Below are positions 12,030 to 62,967 of a stretch of 64,000 nt of DNA, piece after piece; position 1 is the first letter of the stretch, and each line of letters begins with the position of its first letter. The stretch spans positions 7,254,001 through 7,318,000 of the forward strand of contig OZ024755.1 of assembly GCA_964016885.1 (NCBI GenBank), given 5' to 3'. Below the pieces are notes generated by a model, which was not told where the DNA came from, searched no databases, and was given only the letters and a program-made list of their open reading frames with translations. Origin of the DNA: Eledone cirrhosa (lineage: Eukaryota). Position numbers and translations under genes: made by a program.

Positions 12030-12242
12030 TAATAATAATAAATGTGAAAACTAAAATCCGAAGAGGGCTTGATAAGGATAATATATATATAAAAATATAT
12101 AAAAACCGTAGAGCAAATATTTATTAAAATAACATTAAAGTTTAAGCAAAGAATCGCTGCTTTCACCCTTAACGGGATCTTCTGAAACTTAGTTTCAGAA
12201 GATCCCGTTAAGGGTGAAAGCAGCTATTCTTTAATCTGTTTT
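12030..12242. mobile_element. family C insert, head-to-head inverted pair with 3' tail; hammerhead-like fold with CAGAAGA core
   Basis: AGUUU-CAGAAGA-UCCC GUUAA GGGU-GAAA-GCA..UGC-UU-AAACU; inversion centre ~12190. Confidence 0.8.
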
Positions 12243-12309
12243 TTTCTTTAAAAAAAAAAAAAAATATATATATACATACATATATATATATATATATACG
12301 ATATGTAAT

Positions 12310-12371
12310 ATTTCATTCTGATGACTGAAAGCAGATTTGCTTGCTTTCAAGAAACTACTGGTAAATGAAAT
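12310..12371 (+). ncRNA. type I hammerhead ribozyme (family J)
   Basis: AUUUCAUU-CUGAUGA-C-UGAAAGCA/UGCUUUCA-A-GAAA-CUACUGG-UA-AAUGAAAU; perfect 8-bp stem I and 8-bp stem II; GUA site. Confidence 0.8.
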
Positions 12372-12416
12372 AATTATCTTATGTTGTTTATTACATAACT
12401 ATCTATATATATATAT

Positions 12417-12541
12417 GTTTATCCCGTGTTCAATCGGGGGTAACCACAGTAAGTAAGGTACTTAATACATAGCAGAGTATACATATTTAATATAGAAATG
12501 GCTTCTACAGGACTAGAAGTGTTTCATTCGGAGGAAATCAT
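12417..12541 (-). mobile_element. family B insert, truncated in the hammerhead core
   Basis: matches 54149-54280. Confidence 0.8.
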
Positions 12542-12834
12542 ATATATACAGGGTACACCCGGGTTTTGACATTAAATCTTGGGGGTAAAAAAGTGCGTTA
12601 TATAAACAAAAAAATACACACCTATGTACACATTATTACCCTCTCAACACACACACACACACACACACACACACACACACACACGTGTGTGTGTGTGTTT
12701 CAATGTGTATGTTTGTGGCTGCCTCTGATTCTCTCTCACCCTCTCTAGCTCTCCCATCACCACTCTCCTTATTTGTCTCTCTCTGCACTCTACCGTGCAA
12801 GCGATGCGTGCATCTGCACTAAACAATATTGTTA

Positions 12835-13118
12835 CCCCTCCCTGTCTCTACATCTCTCTCTCTCCCTCTCTCTCTACATGTCTTCCCACCTCTCTCTCTC
12901 TCCCTCTCTCTCTACATGTCTTCCCCCTCTCTCTCTCTCCCTCCCTCCCTCTCTACATGTCTCCCCCCCCTCTCTCTACATGTCTCTCTCTCTCTACATG
13001 TCTCTCTCTCTCTACATGTCTCCCCCTCTCTCTACATGACTCCCCACCCCCTCTTTCTACATGCCCCCCTCTCTCCCTCTCTCTCTACATGTCTTCCCCG
13101 CCCTCTCTCTCTCTCTAT
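12835..13118. repeat. CT-rich minisatellite CTCTACATGTC(T/C)n
   Basis: about 10 units. Confidence 0.85.
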
Positions 13119-60500: not shown

Positions 60501-60852
60501 TGGTCTGAACCGATTAAGAATCAATTTACTCCCAGATTCAGTAATTAAGAGACAATGCTATTCTGACAATACCAAACAATGAAGTAAATAGAAATATTTT
60601 AGTTGAAGACATCTGAAGAATGTATTGTACATTAATGGTAATAATAATATTTCTACTATTTTATGACCAATTACAGACGTCTTACTGTATGAAAACTAAT
60701 ATATCTACACACGTTAATACACCTAAGGAACATTATTAGCAATAATGACGTTACTGTTAATAAAATAGGAATCTTATTCCCAGAACATCTATTATTATAC
60801 GGATGCTTTGTTTCATTAGCTATTGCGTGTTCCTATAATATTTATTACTATT

Positions 60853-61180
60853 AGGGCGGTGGATTGGCAGTATCGGTAGAGCATCGGACACCATGCTTCG
60901 CGACATTTACGTTCTGAGTTCTTTGCTTTTCATCCTTACAGGGTCGATAAATAAAGCCTAGTAATACACTGGGGTTGATTTAATCGACTTTCTCTTCCCC
61001 TTCAAATTGTTGGCCTTGTGCCTATAATAGAAACCATTACTATTATTAGGGCGGTGGATTGGTAGTATCGGTAGAGCATAGGACACCATGATTCACGGCA
61101 TAGTGTTACGGCCATTTACTTTCTGAGTTCAAATCCCGTGAGGTTAACTTTGCTTTCATCCTTACGGATTAGAAACAATT
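60853..61180 (+). mobile_element. two tandem S1 SINEs
   Basis: AGGGCGGTGGATTGG heads at 60853 and 61048. Confidence 0.85.
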
Positions 61181-61644
61181 ATTATTATTATTGTCTATAT
61201 TGACGATGTTTTGTGTGAACGGATGTGTTGTCAAACGGCCTTTAGATGTCTGAAATTTTGCCAAGTTTTTAAACGAAAAACTCTTTTTTTATTTTTGGAT
61301 TATTTTCAAACAGAAAACGTTCAGAACGGTTGGAGGTTTATCCTAATATTTGGGGTAGACAAAACAGTGCTTTTAAATATGTAATTTGCTTTTTGATGGT
61401 GATGGTGTTGTTGGTGGTGTATTTATTTACCTATATTTCTTTGATTTTTTCTTGTGGGAGAACGTGATATGAAGACCATTTGTCCCAAAATTTAACATTA
61501 AATATAGCACAGACCTATTCGGACCCGTCGGACGGGTAAATCTCCTATCCCCTTTGGGGTGGGCTAGAGATGTTTTCTCTTGTGAAAATGAGTATAGCTT
61601 TAATTGTGTAAAATCTCATTTTGCCTCATTTCTCCCCGTTTCAT

Positions 61645-62145
61645 ATTGGTGGTTTGATTGTTGTTATTGGTGGTGTTGCTGTAGCTTGTGTTGTTGTTGG
61701 TGTGGTCGTTGTTCTTAGTGTTGTTGATATTGTGGTTGTGTTGCTGTTGTTGGCGTGGTTACTGTGGTTGTTGGACAATTAATAATGGCGGGGTTACTGT
61801 GGATGGTGGAACATTGGTGATGACGGAGTTACTTGGTTGGTGAAAGATTGATGGTGGTATGGTTACTGTGGTTGGTGGAAATTGAGGGTGGTGTAGTTAC
61901 TGTGATTGGTGAAAGATTGATGGTGGTGTGGTTACAGTGGTCGGTGGAAAATTGCTGATGGCGGGGTTACTGTGGTTGGTGGAAGATTTATGGTGGCCTG
62001 GTTCGGGGTTGATGGAAGATTGGTTGTGGTGGGGTTACTGTTGCTGGTGGAAGATTGATGGTGGTCTGTTTGCTGTTCTTGGCGTGGTTATTGGTGGTGG
62101 TGTTGCTACTGTGGTTGGTGTTGGTGGTGTTGCTACTGCTATTGT
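61645..62145. repeat. GT-rich degenerate minisatellite (GGTTACTGTGGTTGGTGGAAGATTGATGGTG)
   Basis: ~35-bp units. Confidence 0.8.
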
Positions 62146-62774
62146 TAATCAGTTCATACATAACGAAGACAGCCAAAAAAAAACCAACAAAAAACCCCCC
62201 CTCAAAATAAGCAACAAAAAATAAAAAGGAAAAAAATAACGGAAAAAAAGACAACCCAATACTATATTCACTTTAAGATTACAAAACATGTGAAGCATAA
62301 TGAAGAAATTTCGTTCGGTCTTCACATAGAGTCGAAATTCATTGTTGCTCACTGTTGAAATGGAACAGTTGCCAATATGAAGTGACATCCTGCTAAATCT
62401 ACAGCAACGTTTAGCTTTTAGTAATTACTGCACACAGTTAAGCAGATATAGCTTAATTATGTAAATATCAATCTATTGATTGATTGAAGCATTAGCAGGC
62501 ATGCAGAGTATAACATTCTCATCTATCTTACCTTCGTTCGTTTATTTATTCGTTGATTCGTTTATTCTATCATTCCTTTATACTTTATCTATTCTATTTT
62601 GTTATATTGTATTTTCTGGTTTGTTTTCCTATTCTTCATCTATTTCTTTCTCTAACAAATGTCTTAGTGGTGTTTTCTTTTTGCCCCATCCGTCTAACTC
62701 CGTACAACTACACATACACGCATATATATATATATATATATATATATATATATATATATATATATATATATATA

Positions 62775-62967
62775 TAGGAAAGGAGTCAGGACCCCGACGG
62801 CTGAGCTCCGGCCGTTTCGACAGCTAGATTCGTTCGGATCTAGCTGTCGAAAGGCCGGAGCTTAGCCGTCGGGGTCTTGACTCTTTTCCTATTACCCACT
62901 CTACTACCCTAAGTATCGAGTACTCTGGTGCGTTATGGTCCACCTGGTTCCTTACCACACCTTCTTT
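62775..62967. mobile_element. family A inverted pair with tail
   Basis: arms 62775-62829 / 62838-62891 plus tail ending CACACCTTCTT(TA)n. Confidence 0.88.

Follow-up and report, generated by a model that had tools for sequence, protein, structure and literature searches.

Head-to-head inverted pairs in the window

What are the short inverted pairs that adjoin TA runs in a 64,000-nt stretch of Eledone cirrhosa DNA (assembly GCA_964016885.1, contig OZ024755.1, positions 7,254,001 to 7,318,000 of the forward strand; hereafter the window), and how did they arise? Each consists of two copies of one sequence placed head to head, typically with one arm that stops early and another that continues into a tail. 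From the sequence features described below, we take the pairs to be, very probably, pseudo-long terminal repeat (pseudo-LTR) stubs of several families of Penelope-like elements (PLEs). For their formation we favor, with about an even chance of being right, twin priming, in which both nicked strands of a TA target prime reverse transcription, one at the tail end of the RNA and the other at an internal site. Counts refer to the window unless stated otherwise, and loci are named by family letter and approximate position.

Self-comparison after masking of pure microsatellites, with local inverted matches scored in bits, yielded 31 matches of at least 40 bits (satellite matches among them) compared with 0 to 8 in 10 shuffles. 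The window holds 18 head-to-head inverted pairs, or ~1 per 3.5 kb. A first-pass annotation of this DNA had reported 13 of these sites, all of which are present at its coordinates; they scored 46 to 715 bits, except for C28472, which reached only 32 bits because most of the shared part is missing from its tailed arm. The annotation missed five pairs (A14491, A63155, G35253, K13712, and X55099). The architecture that it described, a short arm facing a tailed arm, was borne out: 17 of the 18 pairs have a tail on one side, the exception being A14491 with two short arms. Tails measure 15 to 94 nt (A, 74-78; B, 60-71; C, 87; G, 94; H, 75-79; X, 47; I, 35; K, 15); the range of 45 to 95 nt proposed earlier is roughly right, although family I is shorter.

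Alternating T/A runs of at least 8 nt adjoin 31 of the 36 outer ends, compared with 2.6% of background positions; the tail ends of B24308 and B54149 have no (TA)n contact. The two outer ends within a pair are mutually unrelated sequences, and the arms of a pair differ by 2-19% plus deletions. Orientation was taken from the hammerhead strand in families A, B, C, and G and by analogy in H, I, K, and X. Solo copies of A, B, C, and a relative of G are present beside the pairs.

14491..14601, A pair, both arms short; 1-nt spacer at 14543
19923..20139, A pair (subfamily A2); short arm 19923-19987 (-), spacer 19988-19995, arm 19996-20061 (+), tail 20062-20139
32702..32942, A pair (A2); tail 32702-32779, arm 32780-32844 (-), AT-rich spacer of at most 45 nt, short arm 32890-32942 (+) with a 9-nt deletion
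35011..35167, A pair; short arm to ~35061 (-), tailed arm from ~35062 (+), center lost or never made
55524..55712, A pair; tailed arm 55524-55655 (-), short arm 55658-55712 (+)
62775..62968, A pair; short arm 62775-62832 (-), arm 62833-62892 (+), tail 62893-62968
63160..63287, older A-like pair (A63155); tail plus ~17 nt of arm (-), short arm (+), arms hardly overlapping
34175..34231 (+), A solo short arm
40575..40631 (+), A solo short arm with (TA)n on both sides
24308..24470, B pair; short arm (-) to TTCC at 24341-24344, tailed arm (+), tail meeting a family D stub
38689..38862, B pair (38690); tailed arm (-) with a whole hammerhead, core at 38817, joint at ~38821; short arm (+) with a 17-nt deletion at TGA 38827
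54149..54340, B pair; tailed arm (-), joint 54277-54280, short arm (+) to ~11 nt past CTTTCTA
12417..12539 (-), B solo tailed arm
12030..12263, C pair; tailed arm 12030-12189 (-) with a variant hammerhead, core at 12184; short arm from 12191 (+) with an 11-nt deletion and an A run
28465..28652, C pair (C28472); short arm 28465-28536 (-), hammerhead core at 28530; tailed arm (+) lacking most of the shared part
4158..4219 (-), C solo short arm
49795..49894 (+), C solo short arm (C49822), extending upstream of every paired C arm by 25 nt or more
32981..33077 (-), C solo tailed arm
43897..44501, G pair; short arm 43897-44148 (-), hammerhead core at 43996 (-); tailed arm to 44501 (+), hammerhead core at 44309 (+)
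35252..35505, G pair (G35253) without shared sequence; a tail stretch of ~70 nt (-) followed by a short arm (+) that holds a hammerhead core at 35413
48487..48679, H pair, single copy; short arm (-) and tailed arm (+) on either side of a central 22-nt direct duplication; what is retained shows no hammerhead core
44535..44718, I pair, single copy; tail of ~35 nt plus arm (-), short arm (+), no hammerhead core seen
13712..14032, K pair, single copy; arms of ~150 nt, tail of 15 nt
55048..55508, X pair, single copy; tail of 47 nt, arms of 127 nt, spacer of ~155 nt with its own TA run

Single TA tracts at 12030-12540, 32701-33077, 35011-35505, 43897-44718, 55048-55712, and 62775-63290 hold members of different families one directly after another, as though each insertion provided landing sites for those that followed. 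Further inverted repeats that are more decayed or unclassified, some by TA runs, lie at 11594-11725, 5627-5745, 18911-19126, 25469-25633, 45258-45377, and 49104-49165 and are possibly older pairs.

Two 3' end points, paired and alone

In sense orientation, family A has two 3' ends, one after TTTTCCTA and the other 74-78 nt beyond. The internal end lies at TTTTCCTA in 6 of 7 pairs and two solos, or in 7 of 7 when A63155 is counted, whose short arm stops at the equivalent place of its older variant; the left arm of A14491 stops 5 nt before it. Tailed arms of family B end together and its short arms stop at two places ~11 nt apart, the end being clean at CTTTCTA in 24308 only, ~11 nt beyond in 54149, and ragged in 38690. 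The fixed internal TA-containing stop that had been proposed for both families is thus seen in A but not in B. The short arms of C and G have one end site each.

Four sequencing runs were mapped on the tailed arm of the A pair at 62775..62968. Among restriction site-associated DNA (RAD) reads, the A tail end passed into (TA)n in 9,246 of 17,659 mapped reads (run X13) and 10,384 of 18,923 (run X14), numbers that do not equal copy numbers because RAD reads pile up at cut sites. In addition, 14,633 contigs of run X1 fit the family A arm, and 28 contigs from a second organism (X4) also matched it. The A tail end is therefore fixed genome-wide, far beyond the window. The internal end was not among the loose-end rows listed from this mapping, and mapping on the one A arm gave no usual center joints and no confident upstream parent sequence; the nine joint rows obtained each rested on a few reads or a single contig.

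Each end point can form alone, as seen in the short solos A34175, A40575, C4158, C49822, and the G-like 20203 and in the tailed solos B12417 and C32981. C49822 is not a trimmed pair, because it reaches beyond the paired 5' limit. When arms are paired, the combination is biased: among the A, B, C, and G pairs, 13 of 14 are short plus tailed (A, 6/7) and none is tailed plus tailed (pooled p = 0.003; p = 0.027 with arms permuted within family only). We regard this bias as suggestive, not firm.

5' limits, centers, and arm relationships

The 5' limits, read by eye and counted upstream of the GAAA box, lie at 12-17 nt in A1 arms (8/8 listed, with two solos), 22-23 nt in A2 (4/4), 20-25 nt in paired B arms (5/6), and 25-27 nt in paired C arms (4/4); those of A35011 and A63155 are shorter. 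These positions correspond to the 5' strand of helix I of the hammerhead in B and C and to the helix II position in A. The first-pass annotation had the cDNAs joined at 5'-truncated ends; truncation at random is not what we observed, since the 5' ends cluster at a subfamily-specific limit. The centers, by contrast, differ at every locus, with 1-2 nt overlaps, 1-45 nt spacers, or 20-28 nt duplications (G and H); in the G pair at 43897..44501, a 20-nt templated duplication follows a CC-GAAA-GG hairpin. The center of this pair (44119-44190) also contains a perfect 22-bp stem with a GAAA loop and three copies of ATTTGCAT, a motif that we provisionally label octamer-like.

Two microhomologies had been proposed as arm joints, and TTCC (24341-24344) and TGA (38827-38829) both exist, but only the former may mark one. 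In 38690, the left arm ends with GAAGC and the right arm begins with GCTTCC at ~38821; therefore, TGA bounds a 17-nt deletion inside the short arm, similar to the deletions in 32701R, 12030R, 28472R, and 43897R. TTCC may be a true joint or the scar of a 19-nt deletion from a 38690-type precursor.

Within A pairs the arms differ by 8.7%, compared with 22.6% between loci, and for 5 of 10 arms the closest other arm is the partner, which ranks second for 3 more, the arms of A55523 being no closer to each other than to others. A2 is never paired with A1, and at 19923 and at 32701 both arms share a variant peculiar to that locus; differences within and between G loci agree with A. The C arms are uninformative on one versus two templates, with one discordant site in C12030, a transversion found in the short arm and at locus 4158 but absent from the partner arm (a single site, with recurrence possible). 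Both arms of a pair thus stem from a single subfamily, an outcome compatible with one RNA, with two RNAs from a single source, with fold-back, and with later conversion.

An internal TA run and a tail hairpin

The internal end falls on an alternating T/A run of 3-6 nt, present in the tailed arm, in 8 of 8 families (sites read by hand), and T/A runs of at least 3 nt occupy 2.5-15% of arm positions. A hairpin located 2-9 nt past the internal end is common to A, B, C, G, and H and has the form RCTC, inner stem-loop, 0-2 nt bulge, GAGY.

62898..62921 (+), A example; inner stem-loop followed by a 2-nt 3' bulge
24409..24427 (+), B example
28568..28613 (+), C example; outer pair G-C in place of A-U
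44416..44435 (+), G
48605..48629 (+), H; inner-stem G-C in place of A-U

Exact hairpins were found in 12 of 15 tails and in at most 1.4% of shuffles, with a motif that was defined after seeing the data; the exact match in A63155 used a different pairing partner. The outer pair is A-U in 12 rows and G-C in 3, and the inner pair is A-U in 10, G-U in 4, and G-C in 1. These pairs were anchored by script, because MAFFT failed to align the hairpin across families, and the best register was chosen, which favors pairing. The hairpin thus appears to show compensatory changes, and the read variants of the A hairpin, among those listed, lie in the loop, lie in the bulge, or keep a G-U pair. It is not present in D, I, K, or X, and the folding energy of whole tails is unremarkable (z < -2 in 3 of 20). 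Neither the T/A run at the internal end nor the hairpin had an earlier description in the literature searched, which came mostly from outside the subscription journals.

The A tail also carries an ATG (62935-62968, +), downstream of which 4 of 6 read variants are synonymous, a weak hint that the parent open reading frame (ORF) of A begins there. No ATG-started frame like that of A occurs in the tails of the other families.

Hammerhead motifs and assignment to PLEs

A hammerhead descriptor was run in strict and relaxed form, with 30 shuffles as a control. Strict matches numbered 4 (mean of 0.07 in shuffles) and relaxed matches 10 (mean of 0.97), of which two are likely to be chance. Three of the four strict matches lie in G arms, and the relaxed form adds those of B (38817) and C (12184 and 28530) to the matches in G (35413, 44309, and 43996), in a G relative (20203), and in a solo (12318). 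Families B, C, and G thus contain type I hammerhead motifs, and A keeps the 3' half only, namely the GAAA box (GAAAC), a palindromic helix III, and GUC; the first-pass annotation had overlooked these motifs. Because the arms run through the hammerhead cleavage site, the template would have been uncleaved RNA.

The solo with the match at 12318 belongs to a further family and contains a complete hammerhead (12300-12404, +; helices of 9, 9, and 4 bp; monomer fold z of -2.3), which sits between the C pair and the B solo in one TA tract. Family D is present as solos at 16735-17010 (-), 24470-24690 (+), and 40131-40274 (+) with a hammerhead-like core and a pyrimidine-rich upstream region; across (TA)n from the last of these, at 40300-40322, its 3' end is repeated in inverted, tail-to-tail orientation over 17-19 nt.

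The Penelope-like reading already put forward in the first-pass annotation is upheld by the hammerhead motifs, by an architecture like that in the excerpts of PMC8557442 and PMC3846280, and by the lack of terminal inverted repeats. Among PLE clades, the (TA)n target preference characteristic of Neptune is present (31/36 ends) but is shared with Naiads and hence not diagnostic, and the lack of a canonical hammerhead that characterizes Naiads is contradicted by B, C, and G. Eleven short family motifs gave 0 matches to a published Naiad/Chlamys/Hydra supplement, in which line breaks and divergence can hide matches.

Other results speak against this assignment. By descriptor, no hammerhead motif was found in H, I, K, or X. 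Rfam at its gathering score gave 0 matches over the whole window, and by E-value there was no hammerhead among 148 rows for 35000-45500. The monomer ribozyme fold was obtained for one of six motifs tried (that at 12318) and failed for five, a result that by analogy would be in line with the dimer-type minimal motifs of PLEs in the excerpts of PMC4209133. A Pfam scan of the longer 150 of the 271 stop-to-stop frames revealed no GIY-YIG domain and no PLE domain. Since no PLE protein is tied to the families, their membership rests on non-coding features; a parent ORF is not expected inside stubs, and the window contains no full-length copy. We did not accept the open frames that cross the C, H, I, and X arms as evidence of coding; that of C depends on a 2-nt deletion. 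The A-tail pattern had 0 matches in metagenome and viral contigs, and a protein search with one family D frame gave no match.

Two other classes were considered and rejected. Miniature inverted-repeat transposable elements (MITEs) of the Tc1/mariner type do not account for the unrelated outer ends, the A lengths of 111-241 nt, or the solos; because the outer ends are unrelated, there are no terminal inverted repeats, and a MITE is refuted for the multi-copy families. Non-LTR retrozymes were dismissed because no same-strand adjacent copies appeared in the self-comparison or among the 150 of 201 tandem rows listed.

How the pairs form

Under twin priming, the GIY-YIG endonuclease of an unseen parent would nick both (TA)n strands, and the protein, probably acting as a dimer that binds uncleaved RNA at its tail hairpin, would start one complementary DNA (cDNA) at the tail end. 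The second cDNA would start at the internal site, where the TA end of the primer could pair with 3-6 nt of the RNA. Both cDNAs would reach the same 5' limit, set either by the end of a short pseudo-LTR transcript or by a ribozyme helix that stops the enzyme. Their 3' ends would then join, perhaps each jumping onto the other to generate the 1-2 nt overlaps, spacers, and short templated duplications, and later deletions between short repeats would trim the palindromes. This is our first choice because PAc, the Poseidon element of Anolis carolinensis, uses both strands and two sites and the solos show that each site works alone. G35253, in which a tail is joined to a short arm without shared sequence, is what twin priming predicts. 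The two priming sites on both strands that the first-pass annotation had inferred have these same supports (PAc in vitro in the excerpts of PMC11167929 and solo copies with each end point), but its joining of cDNAs at truncated 5' ends is not supported in the same way: the ends are clustered, one microhomology is an internal deletion, the other is ambiguous, and fold-back explains the short-plus-tailed pairs equally well.

Several points weaken twin priming. The pairing bias declines to p = 0.097 after the damaged A63155, G35253, C12030, and C28472 are dropped, and the end points of H, I, K, and X are not callable as fixed because these are single copies. Equal 5' ends and loop-sized centers of 1-4 nt are also expected from fold-back, the A center lies at the helix II position (a natural hairpin), and non-overlapping pairs could be deleted full pairs, internal deletions being common. 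B is uninformative on shared templates, its difference within pairs (9.7%) being close to that between loci (11.1%). For PAc, the excerpts of PMC11167929 report a start site without strand difference and no homology between primer and start site.

Fold-back self-priming is possible, although we think it less probable. A cDNA begun at the tail end would hit the palindrome or ribozyme helix, fold back, and copy itself until, at the first TA run, it was halted by annealing of the other target strand or by a cut of the endonuclease; the element would still be a PLE, with a short arm that is a DNA copy instead of a second reverse transcript. Fold-back covers the short-plus-tailed pairing, the equal 5' limits, and the shared variants together, and it suits the 1-4 nt centers of A14491, B54149, C12030, and C28472, the CC-GAAA-GG hairpin in G, and the location of the A centers at the helix II position. 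The excerpts of PMC3846280 propose that junction palindromes prime their own copying, and those of PMC8557442 that the endonuclease resolves the tail. However, the five short solos require direct priming at the internal site anyway, and fold-back predicts some tailed-plus-tailed pairs, where 0 of 14 were found. For C, the upstream sequence known from solo 49822 does not supply a natural stem where the arms meet, the C12030 transversion sets the short arm apart from its partner (at one, possibly recurrent, site), and spacers vary at every locus.

The other explanations fare worse. A few source pairs, transcribed by read-through into hairpin RNAs, could have given rise to whole pairs copied as units, with both pairing and centers inherited; the three B pairs are derivable from one precursor via 2-, 17-, and 19-nt deletions and 5' limits are common within subfamilies, but centers differ between loci in A1 (3/3), A2 (2/2), and C (2/2) and the solos have the same ends, making this improbable. 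It is likewise quite improbable that long, randomly 5'-truncated pairs were trimmed after insertion at the palindrome center, the common limit being an artefact of survival. Although short-repeat deletions are frequent within arms and are noted for PLEs in the excerpts of PMC3846280, trimming should scatter the limits, which fall within ~5 nt per subfamily and are shared by two A solos, and long arms persist in G and K. MITEs of a TA-targeting DNA transposon, or fold-back artefacts of assembly, would yield small palindromic elements with TA flanks, yet they are very improbable given the variable centers, solos, ribozyme motifs, and arms that differ by 2-19% plus deletions, and an artefact does not explain a tail junction that recurs in raw reads and in a second organism.

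Other repeats in the window

LINE-like (long interspersed nuclear element) fragments lie at 51176-52272, with a weak RVT_1 match (51176-51694) that is below cut-off and far from any pair, and at 10290-10799, with a C-terminal cysteine/histidine motif; both are unlinked to the pairs. A 92-bp tandem array of 8 copies with a 95% match (36794-37530) gave no match to the hammerhead descriptor. An abundant dispersed repeat of ~190 nt ending in short T/A repeats occurs at 3426-3652, 4522-4634, 5752-6063, 7617-7810, 16361-16520, 19114-19320, 36380-36580, 43172-43527, 49202-49365, and 60842-61179; we take it to be, probably, a short interspersed nuclear element derived from transfer RNA.

Relation to known systems

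Twin priming is familiar from L1, where the second nicked strand primes internally via short pairing and inverts sequence without duplicating it. The mechanism proposed for the window shares internal priming of this kind, but the arms here usually both copy the same 50-250 nt.

Much of what we describe is already in print: the inverted pair, the one-sided tail, TA targeting, and two start sites for reverse transcription. In excerpts of PMC8557442, an inverted copy with a one-sided tail of 30-40 bp and (TA)n targeting is described for PLEs, and those of PMC3846280 propose self-priming at head-to-head junctions and note short-repeat deletions. The window pairs resemble the inverted pseudo-LTR plus tail of Penelope/Poseidon, Neptune, and Naiad in their head-to-head copy, single tail, and junction palindromes or overlaps, and resemble endonuclease-bearing PLEs further in their (TA)n targets without visible duplication and their short-repeat deletions. 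Unlike these, the window pairs have no ORF between the repeats, they occur as densely as ~1 per 3.5 kb, their 5' limits are fixed per subfamily, and most tails measure 47-94 nt compared with the published 30-40 nt.

In vitro, PAc nicks and extends both strands of AT-rich targets from two internal start sites that bound the tail downstream of a read-through hammerhead, and it uses uncleaved RNA and is a predicted dimer (PMC11167929, in excerpt). In the window, however, the internal site has 3-6 nt of TA able to pair with the primer, whereas the excerpts describe that of PAc as non-homologous; each arm of a pair uses a different one of the two sites; and in five families the tail opens with a common hairpin.

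The hammerheads resemble the minimal type I motifs of PLEs in their CUGANGAH core, GAAA box, and short or palindromic helix III, but C has a U4A core change, B has U-U at the base of helix II, and A keeps the 3' half only; the excerpts of PMC4209133 mention dual hammerheads separated by 100-700 bp on opposite strands, most motifs there being single ones that truncated PLEs left behind. The non-LTR retrozymes in the excerpts of bioRxiv 10.64898/2026.07.22.740005 are likewise non-coding, with a type I hammerhead, and derived from PLE pseudo-LTRs, but they are direct tandem repeats, whereas the window holds inverted pairs and solos.

Implications for PLE integration

The pairs are new families of a known architecture, to which the pairing bias, the fixed 5' limits, the TA pairing, and the tail hairpin add modestly. 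The excerpts of PMC8557442 and PMC11167929 call it unsolved how the inverted ends and the second strand of PLEs are produced. These additions make that mechanistic question countable, and the rival mechanisms are separable by counting because the genome is a very large natural sample in many parallel families. The tail hairpin is a concrete candidate for a protein-binding element.

Speculatively, PLE integration might be asymmetric twin priming by a docked dimer, with a fixed template boundary, re-copying of ends, and a template swap, a proposal that we hold only tentatively and think rather unlikely. A dimer docked at the hairpin would give the tail-end start to one strand and the TA-pairing internal site to the other; the cDNAs would run to the fixed boundary, sometimes re-copy the last 22-28 nt in a telomerase-like manner, and then swap templates. 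If true, asymmetric template swapping would make both second strands without help from the host, and short pseudo-LTR RNAs would be overlooked, very abundant, non-autonomous, hairpin-forming retroelements that are easily mislabelled as MITEs.

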